DNA from: an uncultured Thermoanaerobaculia bacterium
Lineage (GTDB): Bacteria; Acidobacteriota; Thermoanaerobaculia; Thermoanaerobaculales; Thermoanaerobaculaceae
Assembly: GCA_964594125.1 (NCBI GenBank)
Contig: CAZQLL010000032.1
Span: 1-42,406, forward strand
Reading direction: 5' to 3'
Length of the DNA stretch: 42,406 nucleotides
This document shows, one piece after another, positions 2,169 through 32,620 of this stretch (its first letter is position 1; every line of letters starts with the position of its first letter). The notes under the pieces are model-generated. The model made no database searches. It was not told the origin of the DNA and saw only the letters and a program-made list of their open reading frames with translations. The translations under genes and the position numbers were made by a program.

Positions 2169-3362
2169 TCACCAGGCCGTGGCTTGGTCGTCCAGAAGGC
2201 TGGCGATACCCGACCACGGCACGACACGGATGTCCCGCTGCAGGCGGGCCTCGTCGCCCCCGTAGACCACGGCCCGGTCGAGGCGGCGCACACCGGGGGG
2301 CAGGGTGATCCGGCGAGGCAGCGTCTCCAGAGCAGCGAAGAAGTCGGTGGCAACGGTCTTGCCGGACTTGACCTCGAGGGCGAGCCAGCGCTCGCCGTCG
2401 GCCACCACGACGTCCACCTCGTAGCCCTTGTGGTCCCTGAGGAAGTGGAGGTCGTGTCGCAGCCCGCGGTGGGCGCGCCATTTGAGGATCTCGCTCACGA
2501 CCCAGCTCTCGAAGATCGCGCCGCGCAGGGGGTGCTCGCGAAGTTGCTCGGGGCGCCGGATCCCGAGCAGGAAGCAGAGGAGACCGGTGTCGTGGAAGTA
2601 GAGCTTGGGCGTCTTGACCAGGCGCGTGCCGATGTTGGCGTGGTAGGGGTGCAGGCGGAAGGTGAGGAAGCTCGTCTCCAGCACCGAAAGCCACGCACGC
2701 GCCGTGTTGTGGGTGATGCCGCAGTCGGCGCCCAGCGAGGAGAGGTTGAGCAGTTGCCCGACCCGGCCGGCGCACATCCGAAGGAAAGCCTGGAACGCCT
2801 CGAGGTCGCCGATGTTGAGAAGGAGCCTGGCGTCGCGCTCGACGTAGGTAGCCACGTAGGCGCCGAGCCAGTCATCCGCCGGCACACCGCGATCGAAAAT
2901 CGCCGGGTAGCCGCCCGTCCACACCGTCGCCAGCAGGTCGAGCGGTGCCCCCGGGAACAGCCGCAGCTCGTCAAGGCTGCACGAAAAGAGGTGCAGGACG
3001 GCGGTACGGCCCGCCAGCGACTGGCTGATCGTCTCCAGGAGCGCGAGGTTGGCCGAGCCGGTGAGGACGAACCTGCCCGGGCGCGGGTCGGCATCCACCT
3101 CGCCCTGCATGTAGGAGAGCAGGTCGGGAGCTCGCTGCACCTCGTCGATGACCGCACCGCCGCGGAGCGAATCGAAAAAGCCGCGCGGGTCCGAGCGTGC
3201 GAATGAGCGGATGTCCGGGACCTCCAGACTGACGTAGCGGTGCTCGGGGAAGACGGTACGGCACAGCGTGGTCTTGCCGGACTGCCGAGGACCCGTGACC
3301 GTCACCACCGGGAAGTACTGCGCCAGCCGGGCCACCTGTTCACCGAGCGTACGTGCAATCAC
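2169..3362 (-). CDS. AAA+ ATPase with DUF4143 domain, paralog of 1004..2146, convergent with it
   Basis: Walker A GPRQSGKTTLCR; Walker B AVIDEVQ. The N-terminus VIARTLGEQVARLAQYFPVVTVTGPRQSGKT aligns with MIERVHRRQVEDRLKRFPAVALIGPRQCGKT of the paralog. Start placed at GTG 3360-3362; the track extends to TTG at 3398. Confidence 0.8.
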   Translation of the reverse strand: MIARTLGEQVARLAQYFPVVTVTGPRQSGKTTLCRTVFPEHRYVSLEVPDIRSFARSDPRGFFDSLRGGAVIDEVQRAPDLLSYMQGEVDADPRPGRFVLTGSANLALLETISQSLAGRTAVLHLFSCSLDELRLFPGAPLDLLATVWTGGYPAIFDRGVPADDWLGAYVATYVERDARLLLNIGDLEAFQAFLRMCAGRVGQLLNLSSLGADCGITHNTARAWLSVLETSFLTFRLHPYHANIGTRLVKTPKLYFHDTGLLCFLLGIRRPEQLREHPLRGAIFESWVVSEILKWRAHRGLRHDLHFLRDHKGYEVDVVVADGERWLALEVKSGKTVATDFFAALETLPRRITLPPGVRRLDRAVVYGGDEARLQRDIRVVPWSGIASLLDDQATAW

Positions 3363-3368
3363 ACTATG

Positions 3369-3398
3369 AGGATAGGCTGCATCGGTACAATCTGTCAA
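3369..3398 (-). promoter_or_regulatory. sigma70-like promoter TTGACA-N18-TATCCT, 6 nt before the GTG start (leaderless)
   Basis: Minus-strand reading: ttgaca (plus 3393-3398), 18-nt spacer, tatcct (plus 3369-3374). Lies in an AT-rich islet at 3360-3430. Confidence 0.4.
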
Positions 3399-3595
3399 TC
3401 GAATTTACGATTACTAACACTGAGCGCTGGTCGCGATCGGGCCCATGGCAACGGCGCTCGGGGCGCTGTGCTTCGCCGCGCGGGTGCCGCGCAACGACCT
3501 GCGCGGGGAGTGAGCCGCCCGCCGAGCCCACGGATCAGGCTCCACCCGATCCGCGGGCCGGCTCCCGGTCGTCGCTGCCGCGCGACGGCCTATGA

Positions 3596-4498
3596 TTGCC
3601 CATGCCCTGGCGACTGCCGGACTTCACCTCGTACCTGCGCGACGAGCGCAACCTGTCGGCGCACACGCTGCGGGCGTACGAGCGCGAGGTGGCGGCGTTC
3701 GTGGAGTTCGCTTGCGGAGAGATGGGGCTCGGCAAGCCGCGCGAGGTGACGCCGGCGACGGTGCGGGCGTATCTGGCGCAGCTCCACTCGCGGCGGCTCG
3801 CCAAGGTGTCGGTGCAGCGGGCGCTGGCGGCGCTGCGCACGTACATGCGCTTCCTCGGCCGCGAGGGCGTGGTCGAGGCCAACCCGGCGCGCGTGGTGCC
3901 GACGCCGCGGGCGCCGAAGCCGCTGCCCGAGGTGGTCGGCGCGCCCGACGTCGCCGAGCTGCTCGACGCGCTCCCCGCCACCTCGGCGGGGCGGCGCGAC
4001 CGCGCCGCGCTCGAGCTGCTGTACGCGGCCGGCCTGCGGGTGAGCGAGCTGGTCGGCCTCGACCTCGACGACGTCGACCTGTCGCGGCGGCTGGTGCGGG
4101 TGCTCGGCAAGGGGAACAAGGAGCGGGTGGTGCCGTTCGGAAAGAAGGCCGAAGCAGCGATCCGCAGCTACCTGCCGGACCGCGCCGCCTGGCGCCACCA
4201 GGGAAAGGTGTCCGACGGCGAGGAGCCGCTGCTCGTCAACCAGCGCGGCACGCGTCTGTCGGACCGCTCGCTGCGCCGCATCCTCGACGCCGCCGTGCAC
4301 CATTGCGCACTCGTTCACAAGCTTCACCCGCACGCGCTGCGCCACGCCTTCGCCACCCACCTGCTCGAGGCGGGGATGGACCTGCGGGCGATCCAGGAGC
4401 TGCTCGGCCACACCTCGCTGTCCACCACCCAGCGCTACACCCACCTCGACCTCGCCCACCTCATGGAGACCTACCGCAAGGCGCACCCGAAGGCGTGA
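3596..4498 (+). CDS. xerC: Tyrosine site-specific recombinase, XerC/XerD family
   Basis: N-terminal SAM-like domain (YLRDERNLSAHTLRAYEREV). Catalytic C-terminus HALRHAFATHLLEAGMDLRAIQELLGHTSLSTTQRYTHL with R..H..R..Y. No phage or att context nearby. Confidence 0.8.
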   Translation: MPMPWRLPDFTSYLRDERNLSAHTLRAYEREVAAFVEFACGEMGLGKPREVTPATVRAYLAQLHSRRLAKVSVQRALAALRTYMRFLGREGVVEANPARVVPTPRAPKPLPEVVGAPDVAELLDALPATSAGRRDRAALELLYAAGLRVSELVGLDLDDVDLSRRLVRVLGKGNKERVVPFGKKAEAAIRSYLPDRAAWRHQGKVSDGEEPLLVNQRGTRLSDRSLRRILDAAVHHCALVHKLHPHALRHAFATHLLEAGMDLRAIQELLGHTSLSTTQRYTHLDLAHLMETYRKAHPKA

Positions 4499-5775: not shown

Positions 5776-6708
<933 letters not shown>

Positions 6709-6717
6709 GGATCCCTC

Positions 6718-7110
6718 CTAGATCATCCAGTCTTCAGCGTTCGCGGCGCGCCGCTCGATGGCGACGAGGTCCGCGAGCGTCGTGCGCTCCAGCACCGCGC
6801 GGCGCGCGTCGGCGAGCGCGTCGGCCAGCCAGGCAGCGGCGCCGCGCCCGCGCGCCGGGGCCCCGCTGCCGGGCTCGAGATCGGCCAGCGTGACCGCCAC
6901 CGGCGGACGTGCCAGGCGCACGCCGCCGCGCCGTCCGCGCGTCGTCCGCACCGTGCCGGCGCGCGCCATCGCGGCGAGGAGCCGCCCCAGGAACGGCCCC
7001 GGGATGCGCCGCCGGCGCGCCACCTCGGCCGCCGTCAGGGGCTCCGGGTAGGCCGCGGCGATCTCCAGCAGCGCCTCGATGCGGTAGGTGTCGGTGGCAT
7101 TCACGATCAA
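6718..7110 (-). CDS. Rrf2-family transcriptional regulator, cysteine-free (CymR-like, no Fe-S ligands)
   Basis: Rrf2 wHTH signature (YRIEALLEIA...LTAAEVARRRRIPGPFLGRLLAAMARAGTVRTTRGRRGGVRLARP). The protein contains no cysteines. It lies directly upstream of cysK on the same strand. TTG start. Confidence 0.7.
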   Translation of the reverse strand: MIVNATDTYRIEALLEIAAAYPEPLTAAEVARRRRIPGPFLGRLLAAMARAGTVRTTRGRRGGVRLARPPVAVTLADLEPGSGAPARGRGAAAWLADALADARRAVLERTTLADLVAIERRAANAEDWMI

Positions 7111-7142
7111 TAGAGTCCGAAAACTCAGAGATTATTCCAGGC

Positions 7143-7171
7143 AAGAAGAAAGCGGCCCCGCGAGGGGCCGC
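7143..7171 (-). terminator. Rho-independent terminator after the mtrB-like gene
   Basis: Minus strand: stem GCGGCCCC, loop tcgc, stem GGGGCCGC, followed by TTTCTTCTT. Sits between the barrel stop (7193) and the Rrf2 start (7110). Confidence 0.6.
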
Positions 7172-7192
7172 GAAGGAATGATCCGGTCGGGC

Positions 7193-9130
7193 CTAGCGGC
7201 TCGACCAGCGAAGAAACAGGCCGTAGCGGTCGGACACGTAGTCGGCGACCGGCAGGAGCGTCTCGGTGTAGTCGCGGGACTCGAACTGCGCGTAGACACC
7301 GATCTCGTCGGTGATGCCGATGTCGATGCGGCCGTAGGCGCGGTCGAGGTCGAACGGCATGTCGCCCTCGTTGGAGTACCGGCTGACGCCGGCGTCGAGG
7401 CGGAACCGCGCGAGCTTGAGCGACACGCCGCCGTCGATGCTCTCGCCGTCCTCGGCGTAGAGCGAGGGCGAGGTCGAGAAGTCCTGCGGCGCGCGCACGA
7501 GGATCGTCGAGTCGGAGGTGTAGGTGTCGTAGCCGGCGCGCACGGTGAGCGCCTCGATCGGGGTGATCTCGAGCGCGGCGCCGTAGTGCTCGACCTGGGC
7601 GTCGTACTCGATGCCGACGGTCGGGTTGGCGAGGTCGATCCACTCCGCGGTGCCGAGGAAGTGGAGGTACTTTCCGAGCTTCAGGCCGGCGCGGGCGCGC
7701 AGGCGCTCGCGGTCGAGGTAGTCGGTGCGGACGATCGCGTCGTCGGTCTCGTCCTCGAGGTAGTCGACGCCGAGCGTCACCGGACCGAGCCTGGCGTCGG
7801 CGCCGGCCGAGCGGCGCTGGATCGCGCGGTCGTAGACGCCGCCCTGTCCGCCCGGCACCACGATCTCGGCTGCCGCAGGGGTGAGCGAGAGCTGCTGGTC
7901 GATCGAGCCGCCGCCGACCCACACGTTCACGCCCTTGACCGGCCGCACGACGACCTTGACGTCCGCCATGTCGTCGGAGCGCTCCCATGCGGTGTCGGCG
8001 GAGAGCAGCGCCGCGATGGTGCCGGTGGAGACGCCCGAGAACGTCACGGTGTCGAGGTAGACGGTGTAGACGAGGGCGCTGCCGGCGAGCGCGCGCTCGG
8101 CCGACGTGACGCCGGCGACGATGTCGAGCCAGCGGGTGACCTCGAGCTCGACGCGGACGTTGCCCCGCCGGGAGTCGCTCGAGGCGTCGCCGTAGGCGGT
8201 GTCGTTGGCGCCGGAGAAGAAGCGCTGGAGAGCGAACGAGGCGAACTGCCCGCGAGCGGTGAACGTCTCCTCGGTCTCGCTGTCGTTGCCGTTGGAGCGG
8301 ACGTAGGAGCCGGCGATGCGCACCCGGCGGCCGACCGTACCGGTCACAAAGGCGTTGGTGAACGGCGCCGAGCCGGTCGTGCGGCTGTGCCCCGCGAGCT
8401 GCGACGCGCTGACGTCGCGGCCGAGCACCGGGCGGGAGTTGTTGCCGCCGCTCGGCGCGGTGAGGAGCTGGTAGTCGTAGCTGGTGTCGACGCTCCGCCA
8501 CCCCTGCAGCACGGTGGCGCGCCAGGCGCCGAGCGTGAACGCGAGGCCGAGGCGGAACTCGCTCGTCTTCTCCTCGACGTCGTTGGCGAGCGCGAACTCG
8601 TCCTGCCCGAAGGCGAACGTCGTGGTGCCCGGGCCCCAGTAGCGCTGGTTCGTGTAGCCGACGAGCGGCGAGACCACGGCGCCGGGCAGCAGCTCGAGGT
8701 CGAGGTCGATGACGTCGCGGCGCCGATCGTAGGTGTGCTGGCCGGGGATGACGCCGCTCGCGATGAACGGGTTGGCGTACGCCGGCAGCGCCGAGTAGAG
8801 GTCGGCGCGGGTGTAGGCGAAACGCAGGGTGTAGGTGCGGGCGCGGCCGACCTGGGCGCGGAAGCGGGTGTCCGGGCTGGCGCCGATGCCGGCGGCGTCC
8901 ACCGTCATGCGGTCGAACAGCTCGCCCTTGGGGTCGGTCATCGTCACGCTCAGGGTGTCGAGGAGGAACCCCTCCTTGCCCTTGGCCTGCGTGCGGTACA
9001 CGTCCTCGTTGCCGGAAACGTCGTCCCACTGGTAGCCGATGCCGAGATCGAACTGCGTCGTCTGCGCCAGCGCCGGGGCGCCGGCGACCGCCGCGAGCAG
9101 GAGAGCGAGGAGCATCGCGCGTGTTTTCAT
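7193..9130 (-). CDS. Outer-membrane beta-barrel, MtrB/PioB-like porin partner of decahaem cytochromes
   Basis: Signal peptide MKTRAMLLALLLAAVAGAPALA. 645 aa with alternating hydrophobic beta-strand pattern, rich in Y/D/T/G. Lies immediately downstream (10-nt gap) of the MtrA-like gene. Gene order matches mtrC-mtrA-mtrB. Confidence 0.6.
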   Translation of the reverse strand: MKTRAMLLALLLAAVAGAPALAQTTQFDLGIGYQWDDVSGNEDVYRTQAKGKEGFLLDTLSVTMTDPKGELFDRMTVDAAGIGASPDTRFRAQVGRARTYTLRFAYTRADLYSALPAYANPFIASGVIPGQHTYDRRRDVIDLDLELLPGAVVSPLVGYTNQRYWGPGTTTFAFGQDEFALANDVEEKTSEFRLGLAFTLGAWRATVLQGWRSVDTSYDYQLLTAPSGGNNSRPVLGRDVSASQLAGHSRTTGSAPFTNAFVTGTVGRRVRIAGSYVRSNGNDSETEETFTARGQFASFALQRFFSGANDTAYGDASSDSRRGNVRVELEVTRWLDIVAGVTSAERALAGSALVYTVYLDTVTFSGVSTGTIAALLSADTAWERSDDMADVKVVVRPVKGVNVWVGGGSIDQQLSLTPAAAEIVVPGGQGGVYDRAIQRRSAGADARLGPVTLGVDYLEDETDDAIVRTDYLDRERLRARAGLKLGKYLHFLGTAEWIDLANPTVGIEYDAQVEHYGAALEITPIEALTVRAGYDTYTSDSTILVRAPQDFSTSPSLYAEDGESIDGGVSLKLARFRLDAGVSRYSNEGDMPFDLDRAYGRIDIGITDEIGVYAQFESRDYTETLLPVADYVSDRYGLFLRWSSR

Positions 9131-9139
9131 CTCGGCCTC

Positions 9140-10036
9140 CTAGCGCAGCAGCCGGGGCGAGACGTTCGACCCGTGAACGGCTGTGTGGCACGTGGTGCAG
9201 TTCTGGTAGCGCGGGCTGCGCAGGTCGTGCAGCGACGGCGGCTGCGAGCCGAGCGTCGTGCCGGTGATGTTGGAGTGGCACTCGAGGCAGAGCTGCGCCA
9301 CCGTCGAGCGCGTCAGCATCTTCGGGTTGACGGAGCCGTGCGGCTCGTGGCACGAGCGGCAGTCACCCGCGATCAGGGCGCCGTGCGTGAACACGAACGG
9401 CCCCCGCGTCTCGGTGTGGCACCCCAGGCACGCCGGCTCGCCGGCCGCGGTCTGCTTGATGTTGCCGTCGCCGCGCCCGTGCGGGTTGTGGCAGGCGTAG
9501 CACTGCATGCCGGCCGCGGTGCCGCCCTGGCCGACGGTTGAGTGCATCCGGTGCGTGTAGGGCTTGCCGAAGGTGCCGCGGGTCGCTGGGTGGCACGAGA
9601 CGCACAGCTCGCTGCCGGCGCTGCGCAGCAGCTTGGGCGACGGCTTGGCGCCGTGGATCGCGTGGCACGACTCGCAGTCGACGCCGGCGAGCGCGTGCGC
9701 GCCGCGCGGCTCGATGTCGTTGTAGCTCGTGCCGCCGTGGCAGGAGAGGCACACCATGGCGCCGGCGGTCCCTGCCGGCTTGCCGATCAGCGCGGTGTCG
9801 CCGCCGGCCTCGACGTGCTCCCTGGCGCCGGTGTGGCACGACGCGCACACCGCGCCCTCCGCCGCCTCCCGCCCCAGCGCGAGCGCGTGGGGGTTGGCCT
9901 TGAACTCGGCCGCCACCGTGTCGTGGCACTCGGCGCAGGGGAGCGCCTCCTGGGCCTTCTGCTCGGCGAGCGCCGCCGCCGGCAGGAGGAGAGCCAGGAT
10001 GCCAAGGGTGGCTGCCGTCTTTGCGAGGAATCTCAT
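9140..10036 (-). CDS. Periplasmic decahaem c-type cytochrome, MtrA/PioA/MtoA-like
   Basis: 10 CXXCH motifs in 298 aa (CAECH, CASCH, CLSCH, CESCH, CVSCH, CYACH, CLGCH, CRSCH, CLECH, CTTCH). Signal peptide MRFLAKTAATLGILALLLPAAALA. SD aaaggtgg before the ATG at 10036. The track ORF is artificially extended upstream to 10840. Confidence 0.85.
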   Translation of the reverse strand: MRFLAKTAATLGILALLLPAAALAEQKAQEALPCAECHDTVAAEFKANPHALALGREAAEGAVCASCHTGAREHVEAGGDTALIGKPAGTAGAMVCLSCHGGTSYNDIEPRGAHALAGVDCESCHAIHGAKPSPKLLRSAGSELCVSCHPATRGTFGKPYTHRMHSTVGQGGTAAGMQCYACHNPHGRGDGNIKQTAAGEPACLGCHTETRGPFVFTHGALIAGDCRSCHEPHGSVNPKMLTRSTVAQLCLECHSNITGTTLGSQPPSLHDLRSPRYQNCTTCHTAVHGSNVSPRLLR

Positions 10037-10104
10037 CGCATCCACCTTTCCGCATGCGGGCGGGCCGCCGGCTTTCCGGTCGGCCCGCCCCTGGTCTCCC
10101 GTGC

Positions 10105-12141
10105 CTAGCGGGCGTGCACCTTGGTGACCGCGAACTCGGCGCCCTCGCCGTGGCACGAGGCGCAGGCCTCGGCGAACGGCGCGTTGTTGACGTACGCGTG
10201 CGCCGCGGCGTCGACGCTGCCGTGGCAGGACAGGCAGCTCGCGGCACCCGGCGCCATCGGCGTGTACCAGTCGCGCGGCGTCGGCGTTCCGAGCACGCCG
10301 CTCGGCAGCGGCAGGTCGTACGTGCCGGGGTTGTGGCATGCCTCGCAGTTGCGGCGGTCGCCGGGATAGAGGACCTCGTTGTAGTTGTGCGGCGTGTTGC
10401 CGAAGCCGTACACCGTATACTCGAGCTCCAGTTCCTCGCCGGTGTGGATCTTGTGGATCATGTATTTCATGTGGACCGACTCGGCGGGCATCTTGTCGGC
10501 GGGGCGGCGCGAGCGGTCGTTCTCGTTCGGGTGGTGGCAGATGATGCACTCCTCGACCTTGAAGCGCTGGCCGCCGTGCAGCGCCAGCGTGTTGTGGCAG
10601 TCGTTGCACTTGGCAAGGTCGACCACGGCGCGGCGTGCGACCGGCTGCGCGTCGGTGATCGCGACGTGGAAGATGGGGTTCATGGCCGCCTCGCGGATCG
10701 CCGCCGCCGGGCCGGGGTTGAGCGTCACGTTGCGGTAGACGTCGGCCGAGAGCGTCCACGTGCCGCTGGCGTCGGCGGGGATGGCGTTGGCGAACGCGCA
10801 GCTCCAGGCGTCGCCGCTCGCCACCGCGAGAGACCTGCAATCCTGCCGGAAGTAGCTCGCGTACTCCGTCGTCGGGCCACCGAACAGGAAGTTCAGGCTG
10901 TTCAGCGAGGACGGAGCAACGAGCGAGCCGTCGCCGTTGTTGAGCTTGAAGAGCACCGTCGGCTTGCCGCCCGGGACCGCGCCGCTCACGCTCAGGATTT
11001 CGATCTTGAGGCCCTTGAGCTGCGCCGACTTGGTCGGGATGGTGTGGGCGCCCTTGATCGAGGCGTCGAACTCGAACTCGCCCTGCGGCTGGTGGCAGAA
11101 GCGGCAGGCGTCATCGTCGGACATCGGGCCGGCGACGTGGTTCTCGCCGGTCTCCCAGTTCACCGCGTCGTGGCAGGAACCGCACGCCTGGCGCGACGGG
11201 TTGGTGTACCAGATGTGCCCCTCGGGCGACGAGGCCACGTGACAGGTGGTGCAGTTGCGCACATCCTGCGGGTACGTGACGTGCGAGTAGTCGTGCACGG
11301 CGCCGCCGAACCCGATGATCGTGTACCCCTTGGTGAGGTTGGGGCCGAAGTGGATCTTGTGCGTCATCTCGGCCATCTGCACGTTGTTGCCGGTGTCGGG
11401 GTCGACCGACTGCGTCTGGTTGTGGCACAGCACGCAGAGCTTGACCTCCTGGCGTGAGCCGCCGTGCAACGCCAGCGGGTCGTGGCAGGTGTTGCATGTT
11501 GCGGTCGCCACGGCGTCCCACTTTTCGGTCACCGCAGCGCCGTCCGGGCGGAAGTCGTGCAGGAGGTTCTCGTAGTAGTTCTTGCCGATGATCGCGGTGA
11601 GGTTGCGCGTCGCGTAGATGCCGAGGGTGGTGGTCTTTGTCTGGTCGAAGCCCGCCGGCAACGCTGTACCGAAACGGTACCGGTAGGTGCCCAGCGTGAC
11701 CTCGGTCCACGCGCCGCCCGAGTCGGCGGTCGCCTGCACGGCCGACTTGCCTGTGATCGAGCTCGAGACGGTCCGCTTGGTGTACGCCACGTAATCCCGG
11801 TTCGCCGCGTCGTACCACGCGAGCACGAACGACGCCGAGATCGCGCCGGGTGTCACCTGCCCGAGGCGGTCGAGCGGCTGGTTCATGTCGTCGGTGAACC
11901 TGACCTCGGCGACCGGGCGGCGGTCGGCGGGGATCTGGAAGCTCACCAGCGTGATGTTGAACCCCGGCCGAATGTACGCGGTCTGCTGCGTGCTGAGGTA
12001 CGCCTCCATCTGGTGGGCGGTGTACAGCGCCGCCGGCTGCGAGCGCAGCGGCTGCCTCACCGACCCCACCGGCGGATGCGACGGCAGCGTCCCCGCGGCC
12101 GCCGCAGACACCAGAACGATGCCAAGACTGTGCATCACCAT
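10105..12141 (-). CDS. Outer decahaem c-type cytochrome with MtrC/OmcA-like four-domain layout
   Basis: 10 CXXCH arranged as: about 210 aa haem-free N-terminal domain, 5 haems, a haem-free domain containing a CX12C pair (CRSLAVASGDAWSC), then 5 haems. N-terminal signal has no lipobox cysteine. Confidence 0.75.
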   Translation of the reverse strand: MVMHSLGIVLVSAAAAGTLPSHPPVGSVRQPLRSQPAALYTAHQMEAYLSTQQTAYIRPGFNITLVSFQIPADRRPVAEVRFTDDMNQPLDRLGQVTPGAISASFVLAWYDAANRDYVAYTKRTVSSSITGKSAVQATADSGGAWTEVTLGTYRYRFGTALPAGFDQTKTTTLGIYATRNLTAIIGKNYYENLLHDFRPDGAAVTEKWDAVATATCNTCHDPLALHGGSRQEVKLCVLCHNQTQSVDPDTGNNVQMAEMTHKIHFGPNLTKGYTIIGFGGAVHDYSHVTYPQDVRNCTTCHVASSPEGHIWYTNPSRQACGSCHDAVNWETGENHVAGPMSDDDACRFCHQPQGEFEFDASIKGAHTIPTKSAQLKGLKIEILSVSGAVPGGKPTVLFKLNNGDGSLVAPSSLNSLNFLFGGPTTEYASYFRQDCRSLAVASGDAWSCAFANAIPADASGTWTLSADVYRNVTLNPGPAAAIREAAMNPIFHVAITDAQPVARRAVVDLAKCNDCHNTLALHGGQRFKVEECIICHHPNENDRSRRPADKMPAESVHMKYMIHKIHTGEELELEYTVYGFGNTPHNYNEVLYPGDRRNCEACHNPGTYDLPLPSGVLGTPTPRDWYTPMAPGAASCLSCHGSVDAAAHAYVNNAPFAEACASCHGEGAEFAVTKVHAR

Positions 12142-12382
12142 TGTCCCACCCCTTTCCCCCCGGCACGCCGTGGCGGCGCGCCGCGAAACAACGACTCAGG
12201 CCCCTCGACGGCCCCCGCGGGCGCGCACCGCCGACATCGGCGAGGCGTGGCAGCGAGGTCGTGAACGGCGCCCAGTAACCATCACTTACATCAGCGTAAG
12301 GCCGCACGTGTGCAATGTCAAGGGGGTGTCACACCGCGTGCGGCAGGGTGCCGCTCACCGGCCGATCCGCGGGAGGGGCGGA

Positions 12383-14611: not shown

Positions 14612-15697
14612 CTACCTCCAGGGGCCGCGGACGCCGATCTGAAGCTGCAGCGTGAAGTCGGGGTTGACGCCGTCGGGGATCAGGTTCTCGCCGAGGGCGC
14701 CGGCGAGGTACACGGTGTCGGAAAGCCAGCGGCGGGCGCCGAAGGTGAACATGAACGCGGGCTTCCCCGGCTCGCCGCCCGAGAAGGAGGCCAGCGGCGA
14801 AGTGTCCCAGCGGACCCCGGCGAGCCAGTCGCCGCGTACGCCCCACGGCTGGCGGTACTCGGCGGCGAGGTGCCAGGTGTCGTCGCGCGCGGCGCCGAGG
14901 AACGAGCCGCCGCGGTCGAGGCGCGTGTAGCCGGCCGCCGCGCGCAGCGCGCCGCGTCCGAGGCCCCAGGCGCCGAGCCAGCGCACGCCGACGTCCCAGC
15001 CGCCGCTGCCGCCGATCGTGCCCTCGTCGCCGGTCGGCGCCTCCACGGCAGCGATCCACCGGTGCTCGCCACCCCACGCCGCGCCGAGCCGTCCCGAGAG
15101 CGCGAGCCGGACGTCGCCGACGCCGGACCCCTCGATCTCGTCCCATCGCTCGATCGCACGCCCCTCCTGCGGGTTCCAGACATAGGCGAGCGTCTGCGAG
15201 TGGGCGAACACCTCGCGTCCGCCGACGCCCCATCCTAGGGTCTCGTGAATCTCCTCCGAGATCGCGTCCCAGTGCGGTGAGCCGATCTCGACCCACGGGA
15301 CGGACACGGTCAGCGTCACGCCGTGGCCGAGACCGCGCGCGAAGCGCAGCTCGGCGACCACGCCCTCGACGTCGAAGCGGTGGATGTCGTCGCCGGGGTG
15401 GCGCTGCTCGAGGATGCGCAGCTCCTCCGGGACCAGCGGCTCGCCTTCGAGCCCGAGCTCCTGGTGGATGGTGGCGGTGTGCCAGCTCCCGGACCACAGG
15501 TTGAAGTAGCCGGGGGTGACGGTGAGCTCCCACTCGCCGCCGGCGAGGTCGCGGCCTTCCGCGAGCTCCATCGGCAGCGAGGCCAGCCGCAGCGGCTCCA
15601 CGTACGGGGCGTCCCACGGCCGGACCGTCTGGGCAGAGAGCGGCCGGATCACGACCGCAGCGGCCGCGAGCGCGAATGCTGTGAGGACACGCTTCAT
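14612..15697 (-). CDS. Secreted beta-rich protein of unknown function (DUF3187-like?), paralog A
   Basis: Signal peptide MKRVLTAFALAAAAVVIRPLSA. Shares blocks with 21496..22569 (VPWVEIGSPHWD, APTGDEGTIGGSGGWDVGVRW, RDDTWHLA, SPLAS). ATG start. Confidence 0.7.
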   Translation of the reverse strand: MKRVLTAFALAAAAVVIRPLSAQTVRPWDAPYVEPLRLASLPMELAEGRDLAGGEWELTVTPGYFNLWSGSWHTATIHQELGLEGEPLVPEELRILEQRHPGDDIHRFDVEGVVAELRFARGLGHGVTLTVSVPWVEIGSPHWDAISEEIHETLGWGVGGREVFAHSQTLAYVWNPQEGRAIERWDEIEGSGVGDVRLALSGRLGAAWGGEHRWIAAVEAPTGDEGTIGGSGGWDVGVRWLGAWGLGRGALRAAAGYTRLDRGGSFLGAARDDTWHLAAEYRQPWGVRGDWLAGVRWDTSPLASFSGGEPGKPAFMFTFGARRWLSDTVYLAGALGENLIPDGVNPDFTLQLQIGVRGPWR

Positions 15698-15737
15698 GGC
15701 GCGCGCAGGAATACCAGAACCCGCGCCGCTTTCCTAT

Positions 15738-20473: not shown

Positions 20474-21499
20474 TCAGTCGCGCACGACGTCGAGGCGGAG
20501 CACCACGCCCGGGCCGCCGAGGTCGGAGAACCAGTGGACGTGCTCGTCGACCATGTCGACGTGGACGGCGTAGCTGCCGGCGCCGTCCGGGGCGCGGAAG
20601 CGCAGCTCGAAGGTGCGCTCCCCCCCCGCCGCGACCTCGCCGTCCTCGACGCCGGCGCGGGCGAGGTCGTGCGCCCGGCCGTCGTTGCGCCGGAACTCCG
20701 CCACCGGGTCGGCCGGCCAGGCGGCGAGCGGGCCGAGCGCGCGGGCGCCGAGGCGGATGCCGCGTTGCCGGTCGGAGGACAGCCTCCACGGCTGCTGCGA
20801 GCGGTTGACCACGCGCACCGGCAGCACCATGCCCTCACCCGGCCGCACGCGCGCCGGCGCCTCGCCCCCGAGCGCGATGCCGGCGTCGTACGGCGGCGGG
20901 CAGTACGCCGCGAGGAGCCACTGCCGGAACGCCGCGGCGTCGTGCGAGCGGCCGACGCGCCGCCGCCAGGACTCGTACTCCGCGAAGAAGCGGTGGAGCG
21001 GGCAGGCGTCGGGCCGGCACAGGTGGCCGGCGGCCGGCGCCAGCCACGCGAGCGCCGCGTCGAGCGGCGCGCCGGCGAGCGCGAGCGCCACCCCGGCGCC
21101 CCACCCACTGCGGTCGAAGCCGTCTTTGCAGTGCAGCAGCAGCGGGCGCGGCAGCGCGTCGAGCAGCGCCACGAAGCGCCGCACCTCGTGCTGCGGCGGC
21201 CAGTCGTCGAGCTTGATGCGGACGTCGGCGCGCTGGACGCCGAGCTCGCGGCAGGCCGCCACCTCGTCGGCGTACCAGCGCTCGCTCGGGCGCGACCCGC
21301 GCAGGTTCACCACCGCGCGCACGCCGCGTTGCTCCACGACCTCGCGCCACTCCTCCGCCTCCGGCTGCCCGGCGACGAGCAGGCCGGGAGCGGCCTCGAC
21401 CACGCGTACCGGCCCGTGGTAGCGCGCCCGCGCGGCGAGCAGCAGCGCGGCGAGCACGGCGAGGCCGGCCGCCGCCGCGAGCCACCACCGCCGGCTCAC
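20474..21499 (-). CDS. Cys-based phosphatase (PTP/DUSP-like) with TM anchor
   Basis: P-loop HCKDGFDRSG (CX5R). The GTG start overlaps the paralog B stop (GTGA). TM segment WWLAAAAGLAVLAALLLAA. Confidence 0.6.
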   Translation of the reverse strand: MSRRWWLAAAAGLAVLAALLLAARARYHGPVRVVEAAPGLLVAGQPEAEEWREVVEQRGVRAVVNLRGSRPSERWYADEVAACRELGVQRADVRIKLDDWPPQHEVRRFVALLDALPRPLLLHCKDGFDRSGWGAGVALALAGAPLDAALAWLAPAAGHLCRPDACPLHRFFAEYESWRRRVGRSHDAAAFRQWLLAAYCPPPYDAGIALGGEAPARVRPGEGMVLPVRVVNRSQQPWRLSSDRQRGIRLGARALGPLAAWPADPVAEFRRNDGRAHDLARAGVEDGEVAAGGERTFELRFRAPDGAGSYAVHVDMVDEHVHWFSDLGGPGVVLRLDVVRD

Positions 21500-22569
21500 G
21501 GGCGCACACCCCCGCCGCTGCCGAACGTCAGACGGAACCCGTAGTCGGGCGAGACCCCGGTGCCGTACCAGTCCTGGCCGGTCTCGAGGGCGATCCACGA
21601 GCCGCGCGACAGGTGCGTGACCACGCCCAGCCTGAGGTACGCCGCCGGGTCGCCGAGGGCGGCGGCGGAGAGAGAGGCGAGGGGCGAGCTCTCGTAGGCG
21701 GCGGAGCCGGTGACCCCCCACCCCTTCCCGAGGTCCTGCTCGAGCGACACCGCCAGATGCCAGGTGTCGTCGCGCTCGACGCCGAGCAGGTCACCGGCGT
21801 CATCGAGCCAGGTGTAGCCGGCGCCTGCGACCAGCGACGTGGTGCGCCACCGCCACGCGGCGAACCAACGGACGCCGACGTCCCACCCGCCGGAACCGAG
21901 CAGCGTATCGGCGTCGCCGGTGGGGGCGTCGAGGCTGAGCACGGCCCGGTGCTCGGCGCCCGCGAACCTCCCCGCCGGCGCGGCGAGCGAGACCGTGACG
22001 TCGCCGAGGCCGGACACGACGAGTTCGTCGCGCAGCTCGAGCGTCGAGCCGGGGGTGTGCGCGTAAAAGAACGTCTCGCCGCGCGGGAACAGGTCGCGGT
22101 CGGCGTTGGGGAACGAGAACGCCTCGTGCCACCATTCCGCGATGCCGTCCCAGTGCGGCCGGCCGACCTCGATCCAGGGCACCTGGAGGGAAAGCACGAG
22201 GCCGTGCGCGAGCCCGCGCTGGACGACGAGGTCCGCGCGCCACGACTCGATGTCCACGTGGTACATGTCGTTCGTGGGGTAGCGCGCCTCGATCTCGCGC
22301 AGCTCGTCGGCGCCGACCGGCTCGCCGGCGCGCCCGTACTCCTGGTGGATCGCCGGGATCTCCCACGTCCCCTGCCAGAGGTTGGCGTAGGCGAACGACG
22401 CCTCGACGCGCCAGGCGCCGGCGGCCACCGGCGCCGCCGGGGCGAGGTCGAGCGGCAGGCTGGCGGCGCGCAGCGGGTCCGGCGTCGCGGCGAGACGGAA
22501 CGGAATCGTCTCGGCGGCGGCCGCCGCGGCGAGCAGCAGGGCAGCGAAGGCGAGGCGGGCTCGGCGCAC
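21496..22569 (-). CDS. Secreted beta-rich protein of unknown function, paralog B of 14612..15697
   Basis: Signal peptide MRRARLAFAALLLAAAAAAE. Conserved blocks shared with paralog A. GTG start. Confidence 0.7.
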   Translation of the reverse strand: MRRARLAFAALLLAAAAAAETIPFRLAATPDPLRAASLPLDLAPAAPVAAGAWRVEASFAYANLWQGTWEIPAIHQEYGRAGEPVGADELREIEARYPTNDMYHVDIESWRADLVVQRGLAHGLVLSLQVPWIEVGRPHWDGIAEWWHEAFSFPNADRDLFPRGETFFYAHTPGSTLELRDELVVSGLGDVTVSLAAPAGRFAGAEHRAVLSLDAPTGDADTLLGSGGWDVGVRWFAAWRWRTTSLVAGAGYTWLDDAGDLLGVERDDTWHLAVSLEQDLGKGWGVTGSAAYESSPLASLSAAALGDPAAYLRLGVVTHLSRGSWIALETGQDWYGTGVSPDYGFRLTFGSGGGVRP

Positions 22570-22605
22570 CGCCGGATCGTAGCAAACGCCCGCGCCGGGG
22601 CGCGG

Positions 22606-29577: not shown

Positions 29578-29759
29578 GGCGATGCTATCAGAATCCCCAT
29601 GAGATGGCGCTTAGCCGCGATGGAGATTCCGAGCTCTCGCATGCCGACTCTCTTGAGCCCAAACTCCCGCGCTTGCTGACAGAGCCGTGTCGCAGGGTCG
29701 CCTCGCGTCTTGACAAGCCCCCCAATCTGCGATCCTCCCCAACAAGCAAGGAGGCCCAG

Positions 29760-30119
29760 ATGCGGACGATGCGAGTCAGGAAGACCCACAGACTGCTACT
29801 TGCTGGCTTAATAGCGCTCGTCTTGGGGACTCTTCCAGGGGCGATCCAGGCGAACGCTCCAATCAACATCGACTGCGAACCTCCTTCGTGGTGCCCATTT
29901 GACAATTGGTTCTGCTGGATGTTCGCAGAGTGCCACACGGTGGGTGGAGGCGGAGGCGGCGCCACGGACCCGACCCGTTTGTGCAGGGAGTGCATGCAGT
30001 GGTGCGAGGACCAATACGCGGTATGCAGGGGTGCGGCGGAGGGCATTGCTGGCTACGAGAGCTGCGAGGTTGCCTTGGAAAGCTGCGAGACGAGCTGCGT
30101 TTCAGACTTCAACTGCTAG
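29760..30119 (+). CDS. Secreted Cys/Trp-rich mini-protein with a Gly6 linker
   Basis: Perfect SD aaggagg 5 nt before the ATG. Signal peptide MRTMRVRKTHRLLLAGLIALVLGTLPGAIQA. Mature part is about 88 aa with 12 Cys. Lower-GC codon usage. The track start at 29604 is less likely. Confidence 0.6.
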   Translation: MRTMRVRKTHRLLLAGLIALVLGTLPGAIQANAPINIDCEPPSWCPFDNWFCWMFAECHTVGGGGGGATDPTRLCRECMQWCEDQYAVCRGAAEGIAGYESCEVALESCETSCVSDFNC

Positions 30120-30136
30120 AGTAGCAAGGAAGACCA

Positions 30137-30997
30137 GTGAGAAGCTCCGTCATACGCGTGGTTTTGCTGGTGCTCTGGCTCACCGCCTTGTCGGTGTCCT
30201 CTGGTGCAACGGATGTGCCGCGCGAGACGCGCGTCCACTGGACGATGCTTGATTCGATTGAGAGACTACCCGCGGAAAAGCAGCGCGAGCTCCGTTCCGC
30301 AACGGAGATCCCACAGATCACGATCATCCGGAGGAGTGAGTTCCCGTTGATCACGAAGGCCAATCCGCCGGCGGCCGGGGAAGCGATTCGGAGGTCGAAA
30401 ATCGTACTTGTCAATCCTGCATCTCAGGGTATACGGTTCTCGTGGGCGGAGAAGCGCGACTTCGAGAAAGGCAGGGCGGACTACGCTCTCCTCGTTTACT
30501 ATCCCACGCTGGTGCGGGACGAGATCCGTCTGTCCGTGGAGTACCCCATTCTCGGGCGGGACTTCGACTCTTACTTTGCAGCAGCGGCAGAGGCTCGCCG
30601 CAAGGGGTCCCTTGCTGCCGACGGTCAGCTCCTGGTGACCGTCGACTACTCGGGACGAAAGTGGATGCTGACGGTCGAAGATTGGCGACGCGGCCTCTTC
30701 TCGAGCGAGGACAAGGAGTGGCTCAAAGCTGCCGTCGACGGACGACTCAAGACCGCTCTCAACCTTGTTCTTACCGCCGGGTTTGGTCTGCCTGAGCTGC
30801 AGATGGCCTGCGAGTTGGTTGCCCTCCCGATGTTGGGTGACTACGAGCGGTCGTTCAGGTCTGCCGACGAGCTCATCAGGCCACGGGGCAAGCCGGACTG
30901 CGACTTCGACGCGTGGTTCGGCGAGCCATGCTCGTTGGAGCAGCAGATGGAGTTCAAGGTCAGGAAGAACCCGCAGGTGGCCCCTCCAGCGCCCTAG
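30137..30997 (+). CDS. Secreted hypothetical protein (286 aa) co-operonic with the Cys-rich protein
   Basis: GTG start 17 nt after the upstream stop; SD aaggaag. Signal peptide VRSSVIRVVLLVLWLTALSVSSGA. Lower GC than the surroundings. Confidence 0.6.
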   Translation: MRSSVIRVVLLVLWLTALSVSSGATDVPRETRVHWTMLDSIERLPAEKQRELRSATEIPQITIIRRSEFPLITKANPPAAGEAIRRSKIVLVNPASQGIRFSWAEKRDFEKGRADYALLVYYPTLVRDEIRLSVEYPILGRDFDSYFAAAAEARRKGSLAADGQLLVTVDYSGRKWMLTVEDWRRGLFSSEDKEWLKAAVDGRLKTALNLVLTAGFGLPELQMACELVALPMLGDYERSFRSADELIRPRGKPDCDFDAWFGEPCSLEQQMEFKVRKNPQVAPPAP

Positions 30998-31183
30998 CAG
31001 GGACGCTGGCGCCACTGTCGGCGGGGCGAGATCCCGTGCGGTGTAGCTAGCTTTCGCCGGGTGCAGCCTGTCACTGGTCGCAGGTGCGCCGGCAGTTTCG
31101 GGTCAGGCCTGTCGTCTTGCCTCATCGGCAGGGGTGGGTTGCCCGCACGTCGGCTCGACAGCGCCCAGATGCGGAATTGCGCA

Positions 31184-31528: not shown

Positions 31529-31747
31529 ATGAGCGACACCCTGACCATCCGTCTCGACGGTGAGCTGGCGTCCAGGCTTGCGGCGGCGGCACGCGCTTCC
31601 GGCCGCACCCGCAGCGAGGTGGCGCGGGACGCGTTGCGTCGCCAGTTGGCGATCGTGCTCTTCGACCAACTGCGCTCGCGCGTGATGCCGTTCGCCGAGG
31701 CGCGGGGGCTGCTCACCGACGAGGACGTGTTCCGGCTCGTCTCGTGA
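31529..31747 (+). CDS. vapB: Ribbon-helix-helix antitoxin (VapB/CopG-like)
   Basis: MSDTLTIRLDGELASRLAAAARASGRTRSEVARDALRRQL. Its stop overlaps the vapC start (GTGA). A direct repeat TGTCGTACAT/TGTCTTACAT sits at the start codon. Confidence 0.75.
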   Translation: MSDTLTIRLDGELASRLAAAARASGRTRSEVARDALRRQLAIVLFDQLRSRVMPFAEARGLLTDEDVFRLVS

Positions 31748-32154
31748 AGGTCTTTCCCGACACGAACGTACTCGTCGCCGCGTTCGCGACGCGCGGCCTG
31801 TGCGCGGACCTGCTCCGGATCGTACTGGCCGAGCACGAGCTGGTGCTGGGGCAGGTTGTTCTCGTCGAGCTCGAGCGCGTGATGCGCGTGAGGCTCCGCG
31901 TCCCAGAGGCTGTGATCTCCGCCGCCCTCGATCTCCTGCGCGAGTTCCCGGTGGCCGCGGCGACCGGGCCGCTGCCGCGAATCCGCTGTCGCGACAAGGA
32001 CGACCTTGCCGTGCTCGCCTGCGCTCTCGCCGCGGACGCCGAGGTTCTCGTGACCGGCGACCGCGATCTCCTCGTGCTCGCCGGGAAGACGGGCATCCGC
32101 ATCGTCGATCCGCGGGAGCTGTGGACCCTGCTGCGAGGGGAAGCCGGGAGCTGA
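31744..32154 (+). CDS. vapC: PIN-domain toxin
   Basis: FPDTNVLV...D..D..LA.A....LVTGDRDL, with conserved acidic residues. Confidence 0.8.
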   Translation: MKVFPDTNVLVAAFATRGLCADLLRIVLAEHELVLGQVVLVELERVMRVRLRVPEAVISAALDLLREFPVAAATGPLPRIRCRDKDDLAVLACALAADAEVLVTGDRDLLVLAGKTGIRIVDPRELWTLLRGEAGS

Positions 32155-32158
32155 TGCG

Positions 32159-32620
32159 ATGGGCGGGGCGAGGAGCACTGGCAGGCGCAGCTCCCGATCG
32201 GCGCGGGTGCACGGCGAGGTGCAGGGGCGGGCGGGCAGCGTGTTTGCGGCGGTACACGCGCTGGTGCGGGCGATCCCGCGCGGGCGGGTGATGACCTACG
32301 GGCAGATCTCGGTGCTGCTCGGCAGCCGCATCTCGCCGGCGGCGGTGGGGTGGGCGATGCACGGCAGCCCCGCCGACGTGCCGTGGCACCGCGTCGTCAA
32401 CGCCGCGGGAGGCTGCTCGACCGACCGCATGCCCGACATCCCGCCGGGAACGCAGCGCGCTCTGCTGCAGGCCGAGGGGGTCGAGTTCCGCCTCGACGGC
32501 ACCATCGAGGTCGAGCGGTACCGATGGTCGCCTGCGTCGGCGGCAGGCGCGAGTCGTCGAGCGTCCTGCAGCCGTCCCGGGGTTCGTCCTCGGGGTTCGC
32601 CCTCCTCGGAAACCCCGTGA
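32159..32620 (+). CDS. Alkyltransferase-like protein (ATL, YbaZ/Atl1-type; MGMT fold with Trp replacing the acceptor Cys)
   Basis: VMTYGQIS...PWHRVVNAAG...ERYRW; PWHRV in place of PCHRV. ATG 4 nt after the vapC stop, with SD gggag. Confidence 0.8.
   Translation: MGGARSTGRRSSRSARVHGEVQGRAGSVFAAVHALVRAIPRGRVMTYGQISVLLGSRISPAAVGWAMHGSPADVPWHRVVNAAGGCSTDRMPDIPPGTQRALLQAEGVEFRLDGTIEVERYRWSPASAAGASRRASCSRPGVRPRGSPSSETP

Follow-up and report, generated by a model that had tools for sequence, protein, structure and literature searches.

A single mtrC-mtrA-mtrB-like operon in the window analysed here (the whole 42,406-nt stretch of DNA) probably encodes an Mtr-type porin-cytochrome conduit, for which an outward (reductive) electron flow is proposed; we assign this reading a probability of about 0.78. 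Of the routes by which Gram-negative bacteria respire minerals and electrodes, Mtr conduits are the best understood. The complete device is found here in an uncultured high-GC bacterium that, going by how its nearest relatives are labelled, is most likely an acidobacterium and probably belongs to the class Thermoanaerobaculia. Relatives of the device recur across many Acidobacteriota MAGs. A sequence-only reading of the same DNA had described the three genes as an MtrCAB-style conduit; its observation is confirmed and its interpretation is supported.

Operon organization and control signals

All three genes lie on the minus strand and follow one another in the order mtrC-like (12141..10105, 678 aa), mtrA-like (10036..9140, 298 aa), and mtrB-like (9130..7193, 645 aa). 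The co-directional trio with these protein lengths, as noted earlier, is borne out by the open reading frame list and by an independent metagenome gene call that returned the same three lengths. The gap between the mtrC-like and mtrA-like genes measures 68 nt as previously given, whereas the one between the mtrA-like and barrel genes is 9 nt and not 10, a trivial discrepancy of one. Exactly 10 CxxCH motifs were counted in each of the first two products, which makes both of them decahaem cytochromes as claimed (20 haem motifs in total), and the third protein is haem-free. Since CxxCH, CxxxCH, and CxxxxCH are absent outside the two cytochrome genes in all six reading frames of the window, the clustering of CxxCH within these genes is not a chance effect. 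At the operon level, the locus agrees with MtrCAB in that homologues of mtrC, mtrA, and mtrB are contiguous, point in one direction, and jointly provide 20 haems.

Ribosome-binding sites are present at the three intact open reading frames, including a Shine-Dalgarno GGAGG located 6 nt 5' of the barrel start codon, and one terminator serves the set. This intrinsic terminator (7142..7171, minus strand) lies 21 nt past the barrel stop codon and has a stem of 8 G-C pairs with a 4-nt loop; read from 7171 to 7142, its sequence is GCGGCCCC-TCGC-GGGGCCGC, then TTTCTTCTT. The all-GC stem followed by TTTCTTCTT justifies the earlier description of a textbook terminator ending the operon. Upstream, a weak candidate for a sigma-70-like promoter (12293..12321, minus strand; TTGACA, a 17-nt spacer, and TACGCT) was read by eye ~150 nt ahead of the mtrC-like start. 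A consensus promoter scan called nothing, and the scanner missed this candidate because its -10 hexamer matches at only 3/6 positions. The GC content around the locus is about 0.68-0.75, in line with the high-GC setting already described.

The operon is flanked by a histone-deacetylase-like gene, an Rrf2 regulator (the gene downstream of the barrel), and cysK. Scans of the window for tRNAs and Rfam families gave no matches. GC3 is 0.94-0.97 for the barrel and mtrC-like genes and 0.91-0.97 for their neighbours, and the downstream Rrf2-cysK-orf345 synteny is shared by about 10-12 of the closest loci. Because of this matching GC3 and conserved synteny, a recent horizontal acquisition is unsupported.

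The two cytochromes and the barrel

The 678-aa cytochrome is a clear member of the OmcA/MtrC family. In an HMM search against this family it matched TIGR03507 with 437.4 bits, far over the cutoff of 209.3 (E 9.7e-131, profile positions 6-672 of 672), and public records list it as 'OmcA/MtrC family decaheme c-type cytochrome'. The previously described alternation of haem-free and pentahaem domains (beta / 5 haems / beta / 5 haems) is upheld by the position of the haem motifs (residues 216-346 and 512-660), by two matches to PF22113 (MtrC/MtrF domains II/IV), and by the beta-rich domains of the AF2 model (about 60-200 and 378-495). When this model was compared with PDB folds, the top 16 matches were Shewanella OmcA, UndA, MtrC, and MtrF. 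Besides its 10 CxxCH motifs, the protein contains 21 further His. Among the three proteins it is the best conserved, with an identity of at least 54% among the best 120 homologues. Its N-terminus, MVMHSLGIVLVSAAAAGTLPSHPP, is a hydrophobic segment without Cys. A lipobox Cys is thus absent from the protein, and a lipobox-like motif was found in only 1 of 120 relatives; the lipobox is a trait of the Shewanella proteins and not of the HMM-defined TIGR03507 family. A Cys pair is present in domain III (Cys435 and Cys448, CX12C). Among 31 relatives, only three have Cys in these columns; in a few others a pair occurs at different positions, and the majority lack one.

The 298-aa product, a periplasmic decahaem cytochrome, carries a Sec signal peptide, whose AxA cleavage site (between …PAAALA and EQ) is read directly from the sequence. 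A search with the MtrA-type HMM gave a divided result: TIGR03508 (DmsE family) matches over its full length (positions 5-257 of 258, E 2.2e-55), but the score of 187.9 bits stays 4.3 bits under the curated cutoff of 192.2. At JGI and NCBI, exactly this protein is listed as 'DmsE family decaheme c-type cytochrome'. Its match to a Geobacter GSU2203-family decahaem model is sub-threshold (147 bits, cutoff 325). Among PDB sequences, its best match is 6r2q_A, the MtrA of the S. baltica Mtr complex (E 1.9e-27), with which all 10 CxxCH are in register. Furthermore, 11 additional His are available as distal ligands for bis-His ligation.

The 645-aa protein carries a signal peptide (cleaved between …APALA and QTT) and has no Cys. 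Its confident predicted model is a plug-less outer-membrane beta-barrel with 26 strands. MtrB is the top structural match in two independent structure-comparison methods, above the other solved barrels, and the first four strands of the model are shorter than the others, as is likewise the case in MtrB (PMC7198977). The identity in the structural alignment with MtrB is only 13%. PF11854 and TIGR03509 gave no match up to E 10, Pfam and NCBIfam yielded noise only, and a PDB sequence search using the barrel alone or a 41-sequence profile did not reach 6r2q_B. The relatives of the barrel behave similarly: PF11854 is reached by only 4 of 41 (best E 4e-07), TIGR03509 by 2 of 41 (E about 6e-4), and none of ten distant representatives (22-28% identity), drawn from an exhaustive HMMER search, matches PF11854. 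Some family members match the generic porin models Porin_4 and OMP_b-brl. The earlier assignment to the MtrB/PioB type consequently holds for the predicted fold and not for the sequence. As no family model is matched, the barrel is not filed within the sequence-defined MtrB/PioB family, and its link to MtrB rests on the predicted fold together with the gene context, i.e., the MtrA-type decahaem gene adjoining it at 9 nt.

Known conduits and the probable direction of electron transfer

We propose that the 298-aa cytochrome, once exported, would be threaded from the periplasm into the lumen of the barrel with its 26 strands, where ten bis-His haems would form an insulated chain spanning the outer membrane. 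The four-domain 678-aa cytochrome at the cell surface would then receive the electrons, and its haems may be exposed to acceptors that are insoluble or large (for example, oxides of Fe(III)/Mn(IV), humic substances, electrodes, or partner cells). The quinol pool would be the source of the electrons, which would travel via a quinol dehydrogenase of the inner membrane and via periplasmic carriers, the genes of which would lie elsewhere; a quinol dehydrogenase of the CymA, ImcH, or CbcL type was not found in the 42-kb window. We infer that the three proteins form a complex and that its acceptors are of these kinds. An MtrC-type surface cytochrome is characteristic of reductive Mtr systems, and its presence here, together with the physiology of the relatives, suggests that electrons probably leave the cell for Fe(III)/Mn(IV) or electrodes.

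Shewanella MtrCAB (S. baltica OS185, PDB 6R2Q; PMC7198977) shares with this locus the C-A-B order, the two decahaem cytochromes, the aligned ten haem motifs of MtrA, the four-domain layout of MtrC, and, as far as the predicted fold goes, the 26-strand barrel with four short N-terminal strands. On the other hand, the two barrels are 13% identical and the one described here is undetected by PF11854 and TIGR03509, the 298-aa protein is about 35 residues shorter than MtrA at the N-terminus, and S. baltica MtrC carries a lipid-anchor site (PMC7198977), whereas its counterpart has no lipobox. Further differences are that omcA and mtrDEF paralogues and additional cytochromes are absent from the 42 kb and that a quinol dehydrogenase is lacking in the vicinity. 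An N-terminal CXXC has been reported in gammaproteobacterial MtrB and is lacking in the barrel, which contains no Cys at all.

Group 5 MtrCAB from Acidobacteriia / Bryobacterales (Baker et al. 2022, PMC8805035) belongs to the same phylum and, as here, comprises a single mtrC without duplication and no adjoining inner-membrane quinone oxidoreductase gene. In Group 5, however, a periplasmic tetrahaem gene is located directly downstream of mtrB, whereas here this place is taken by the Rrf2 regulator and the window encodes no more haem proteins. Moreover, Group 5 MtrB is retrievable from Aeromonas MtrB by PSI-BLAST, a sequence signal that the barrel does not give. Group 5 lies in the Acidobacteriia, and the relatives of this locus are labelled Thermoanaerobaculia or Holophagae.

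Geobacter Pcc (OmaB-OmbB-OmcB) and Ext follow the same logic of a periplasmic multihaem cytochrome, a barrel, and a surface multihaem cytochrome, but Pcc uses other protein families, octahaem and dodecahaem cytochromes, a lipoprotein (OmcB), and a different gene order. With its C-A-B order, 10 + 10 haems, and an outer protein of the OmcA/MtrC family, the locus conforms to the Shewanella paradigm rather than to Pcc, as the sequence-only reading had proposed. It is extremely improbable that the operon encodes a DmsEF-like or Pcc-like conduit for some other terminal module (for instance, an extracellular DMSO reductase or a dodecahaem lipoprotein). The 'DmsE family' label, which is the best NCBIfam name of the small cytochrome, and its sub-threshold GSU2203-family match (147 vs 325 bits) point that way, but the gene content already largely refutes this option: no molybdoenzyme or FeS subunit gene flanks the cluster, the outer partner is not an OmcB-type dodecahaem, and order and haem numbers fit Mtr and not an octahaem/dodecahaem Pcc. 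We also consider it very unlikely that the cytochromes are a periplasmic/extracellular electron-transfer pair next to an unrelated porin or substrate channel instead of a sheath. The missing sequence match to MtrB/PioB and the Porin_4 and OMP_b-brl matches within the barrel family would agree with such a channel, and the predicted MtrB fold and the gene context link the barrel to MtrB.

The same device might run inward, with extracellular Fe(II), reduced humics, a cathode-like mineral, or a syntrophic partner as the source of the electrons that it passes to the periplasm, like MtoAB/PioAB, which likewise combine a periplasmic decahaem cytochrome of this superfamily with a large barrel encoded alongside. 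Mtr-type conduits are thermodynamically reversible and can work in either direction, the 298-aa protein falls into the same broad DmsE/MtrA/MtoA/PioA family, and the operon is not linked to CymA or another partner of a reductive pathway. However, the Fe(II)-oxidizing MtoAB/PioAB conduits have two components and are not known to include an MtrC-type surface cytochrome, whereas here this component is present and is even the best conserved one (at least 54% among the best 120 homologues). Cyc2, MtoD, and other oxidation-linked genes were not found in the window, and the lineages of the relatives include the cultured Thermoanaerobaculum aquaticum, which has been described as an iron reducer (PMC9671151, PMC5900883). 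Inward flow is thus unlikely, and the outward-directed conduit is the reading we prefer. Points that weigh against the preferred reading are the missing sequence similarity of the barrel to MtrB/PioB, the TIGR03508 score just under its cutoff, the missing lipobox, and the absence of a quinol dehydrogenase from the window.

Related loci and their implications

A search with a narrow alignment as query provided 80 related loci for examination, nearly all of them from Acidobacteriota MAGs labelled Thermoanaerobaculia or Holophagae. The C-A-B order is kept in most of these loci, which usually encode a decahaem cytochrome of ~700 aa, then one of ~320 aa, and then a barrel. For each cytochrome, exactly 10 haem motifs are found in 119 of 120 homologues, a constancy that speaks for purifying selection acting on the entire device. 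The search with the barrel returned 582 cluster representatives at 50% identity.

We tentatively suggest that these loci may represent a large, vertically inherited, and largely overlooked Mtr clade in Thermoanaerobaculia/Holophagae, with a barrel beyond the MtrB/PioB models and a surface cytochrome that is not a lipoprotein, although we hold this to be somewhat less than an even chance. If the surface cytochrome is indeed not a lipoprotein, its export and tethering would be unlike those of Shewanella MtrC; a hydrophobic N-terminal segment that stays uncleaved may serve this end, for example, or the protein may depend solely on docking to the barrel. Public databases list the barrel as "hypothetical protein" and neither family model recognizes it, so that pipelines asking for all three components would miss the clade. 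If the suggested clade is real, the capacity for extracellular electron transfer of Acidobacteriota in soil and sediment would be systematically undercounted by surveys that demand a recognizable MtrB. Structure prediction combined with gene context can recover it. The known Mtr mechanism is unchanged by this locus. The clade would offer a second, deeply divergent reference for an insulated decahaem wire in a barrel, and the combination of no lipid anchor with a barrel of 13% identity to MtrB makes the locus a useful natural variant for asking which features of the complex are essential.

Operon layout and the two decahaem cytochromes

The best-supported reading of the locus is an Mtr-type insulated wire encoded by three adjacent genes on the reverse strand. 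In transcription order, these encode a large decahaem cytochrome of 678 aa (12141..10105), a small decahaem cytochrome of 298 aa (10036..9140), and a haem-free outer-membrane protein of 645 aa, here called the barrel (9130..7193). Products of the same three lengths were also called independently on the 96-kb public metagenome contig that contains this sequence (JGI sample 3300037501, Ga0394875_0000276). The arrangement proposed in the sequence-only reading is thus confirmed, including the 68-nt gap between the two cytochrome genes; the gap between the small cytochrome and barrel genes, given there as 10 nt, was measured as 9 nt, a trivial discrepancy. A GGAGG Shine-Dalgarno sequence is located 6 nt 5' of the barrel start codon, and the terminator that had been proposed to close the operon was found 21 nt past the barrel stop codon, where a hairpin formed by eight G-C pairs, GCGGCCCC-TCGC-GGGGCCGC, is followed by TTTCTTCTT. 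A six-frame scan of the 42,406-nt window yielded exactly 20 CxxCH motifs, ten in each cytochrome gene and none outside these two genes. Given this distribution of motifs, together with the ORFs and the hairpin, the three-gene arrangement is a real feature and not a product of chance.

The NCBIfam OmcA/MtrC model matches the 678-aa cytochrome from end to end with 437 bits (curated cutoff 209), and the Pfam model for MtrC/MtrF domain II/IV matches it twice. Residues 216-346 and 512-660 each hold one block of its haem motifs, and 21 histidines are present besides those of the motifs. In the AlphaFold2 model, confident beta-rich domains (~60-200 and 378-495) alternate with the two haem regions, with a mean pLDDT of 72 and a pTM of 0.48 that make the relative domain orientation unreliable. 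Every one of the 16 top-scoring PDB fold matches is to Shewanella OmcA, UndA, MtrC, or MtrF (E 4e-26 to 3e-10). JGI/NCBI already list this exact protein as "OmcA/MtrC family decaheme c-type cytochrome". Family model, haem blocks, predicted domains, and fold matches hence all support the proposed MtrC/OmcA layout of haem-free domains alternating with pentahaem domains.

The MtrC of Shewanella baltica has a lipid-anchor site (PMC7198977), whereas the 678-aa cytochrome begins with a hydrophobic N-terminal segment (MVMHSLGIVLVSAAAAGTLPSHPP…) that has no lipobox cysteine, and a lipobox-like motif occurs in only 1 of 120 relatives. Another difference from the Shewanella proteins concerns a cysteine pair in domain III (C435/C448), which the 678-aa cytochrome has but which is not conserved in the relatives. 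At the N-terminus (window 12026-12141 in the MtrC-like protein), a (V/L)P(S/A)H motif recurs after the hydrophobic segment in the closest relatives, and the model predicts disorder for the first ~55 residues (pLDDT <50). This may serve in sorting or tethering in place of the lipobox.

In addition to a standard signal peptide, the 298-aa cytochrome has ten CxxCH motifs and eleven further histidines. The DmsE/MtrA family model covers it at full length (E 2e-55) with 187.9 bits, 4.3 bits less than the curated cutoff (192.2). Among solved structures, the protein is closest to MtrA from the Mtr complex of S. baltica (6r2q_A, E 1.9e-27), with which all ten haem motifs are in register. Nitrite-reductase-type cytochromes, a family that the sequence-only reading had set against its own assignment, match the 298-aa protein only weakly and partially. 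In the PDB copy searched, chain A of 6r2q bears the molecule name 'Cystathionine beta-synthase', evidently a mislabel, as the chain aligns as a decahaem cytochrome.

A divergent barrel with a predicted MtrB-like fold

The third protein is publicly named "hypothetical protein". No Pfam or NCBIfam family matched it, even at E up to 10, and no PDB chain was matched by either the single sequence or a profile of 41 family sequences. Homologues are nevertheless numerous, with 196 retrieved by a word-indexed search and 582 cluster representatives by an exhaustive one. Among 41 diverse family members, four reached PF11854 (MtrB_PioB) weakly (best E 4e-07) and two reached TIGR03509 (E ~6e-4), and generic porin models matched more of the 41 than these two models did. 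The barrel falls outside both families as they are defined by sequence and is not filed there.

An AlphaFold2 model built on the alignment of the 41 diverse members is confident (pLDDT 89.0, pTM 0.80) and folds residues 27-644 into 26 beta-strands with no plug domain. Strands 1-4 are 8-14 residues long and the others ~12-29. This resembles the crystal structure of MtrB, in which the barrel likewise has 26 strands and the initial four are shorter than the remaining 22 (PMC7198977). When the model was compared with the PDB by Foldseek, MtrB (6r2q_B) ranked first (E 1.7e-13, TM 0.67), followed by 22-strand TonB-dependent receptors at TM ~0.4; two structure-comparison methods agree on MtrB. The proposed MtrB/PioB-type porin therefore stands on predicted fold and fails on family sequence models. 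On the strength of the predicted structure, the barrel is read as a protein that works like MtrB and, most parsimoniously, as a very divergent MtrB homologue. Gammaproteobacterial MtrB is reported to have an N-terminal CXXC. The 645-aa barrel contains no cysteine at all and thus lacks this motif, which was likewise found in none of 115 relatives.

Conservation, inheritance, and gene neighbourhood

In a scan using one genome per species, 80 loci with barrel relatives (34-71% identity) were found, nearly all in MAGs labelled Acidobacteriota, Thermoanaerobaculia, Thermoanaerobaculaceae, or Holophagae; the other taxon labels on a few of them may be a binning effect. At most of these loci, a decahaem ORF of ~300-350 aa lies directly before the barrel gene on its strand and is itself preceded by a decahaem ORF of ~700 aa. 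For each cytochrome, 119 of 120 homologues retain the ten haem motifs. Many of the more distant relatives have additional multihaem ORFs 3' of the barrel gene and co-directional with it (e.g., L034 10533-17102, L046 10541-14235, L053 10140-13823, L064 10221-16946, and L072 10160-13867), some with 11-12 CxxCH motifs and including a recurrent ~495-aa ORF with five. The window's locus has no such ORFs after the barrel; in the distant relatives, they may encode lineage-specific accessory or periplasmic partners.

Directly downstream of the conduit terminator lies a gene for an Rrf2-family regulator (7110..6718, reverse strand), followed by cysK (6708..5776, reverse strand), a pair that probably forms a CymR/CysK-type cysteine module with no relation to the conduit. 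The Rrf2-cysK-orf345 neighbourhood is common to ~10-12 of the closest loci, with CysK identities of 84-89% against just 42-60% for the barrel. Furthermore, GC3 does not differ between the barrel and mtrC genes (0.94-0.97) and the genes on either side of them. Shared synteny, unequal identities, and GC3 point to vertical inheritance within the lineage with a fast-evolving barrel, and the retained neighbourhood and GC3 argue against a recent transfer of the operon.

A histone-deacetylase-like gene lies upstream of the conduit, and the farther neighbours include genes for a cyclophilin, flotillin, and glycosyltransferases. Two convergent paralogous AAA_14/DUF4143 ATPase genes (917-2146, forward; 2169-3404, reverse) adjoin a gene for a XerC/D-like tyrosine recombinase (3596-4498, forward). 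Two DUF3187 paralogues (14612-15733 and 21496-22605, both reverse) are ~6 kb apart, one adjoining a LysM protein and the other near a flotillin/NfeD pair. A low-GC island of ~1.5 kb (29550-31050; 0.59-0.62 versus ~0.73 around it) holds two forward ORFs with signal-peptide-like N-termini, one of 171 aa with a Cys-rich C-terminal half (29604..30119) and one of 286 aa (30137..30997), which may be a recently acquired secreted-protein pair. Beyond it, translation alone suggests a PIN-domain-like ORF (31744..32154, forward) and, directly after it, an Ogt/ATL-like ORF with an '…HRVVNAAG…' motif (32159..32620, forward). Neither a CymA-, ImcH-, or CbcL-type protein nor an additional c-type cytochrome motif was found anywhere in the 42,406-nt window; those parts of the pathway that belong to the inner membrane and periplasm must be encoded elsewhere.

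Proposed electron flow and place among Mtr systems

The analysis shows the parts of the conduit, their motifs and folds, and their conserved order, and family matches, the 6r2q_A alignment, the predicted barrel fold, and the C-A-B order together uphold the proposed Mtr-type interpretation. Assembly into a complex, the outward direction, and the substrates are inferred from these. In the proposed complex, the decahaem MtrA-like protein would sit inside the 26-strand barrel and pass electrons to the MtrC-like decahaem protein at the surface, which would in turn reduce extracellular acceptors. MtrC-type surface cytochromes accompany reductive systems and are not known from MtoAB or PioAB. Electrons may instead flow inward through the conduit, but the presence of an MtrC-type cytochrome here speaks against this, as does the description of the cultured Thermoanaerobaculum aquaticum as an iron reducer (PMC9671151, PMC5900883). 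Outward electron flow is favoured on the same two grounds.

A PSI-BLAST-based survey requiring all three genes found acidobacterial MtrCAB only in five Acidobacteriia/Bryobacterales genomes ("Group 5"), where mtrB is followed by a tetrahaem gene and the cluster lacks a linked quinone oxidoreductase (PMC8805035). No complete mtr operon was found when cultured Acidobacteria were compared (PMC5900883). From hot-spring metagenomics, three Acidobacteriota MAGs were reported to carry MtrABC genes, and a T. aquaticum-like MAG to carry MtrC/MtrA (PMC9671151). Mtr-type genes are thus already known in the phylum (PMC8805035, PMC9671151), and both cytochromes described here had been annotated automatically. 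What is new is the model-based identification of the unannotated 645-aa barrel as MtrB-like, evidence for wide occurrence and conservation of the full C-A-B device among Thermoanaerobaculia- and Holophagae-labelled MAGs, and the difference of this clade from Shewanella, with no lipobox on the MtrC-like protein and no cysteine in the barrel. The locus arguably represents an additional Mtr "group". Its mechanism would not surprise a specialist, but the gap in annotation deserves to be recorded, as does a surface cytochrome that is not a lipoprotein.
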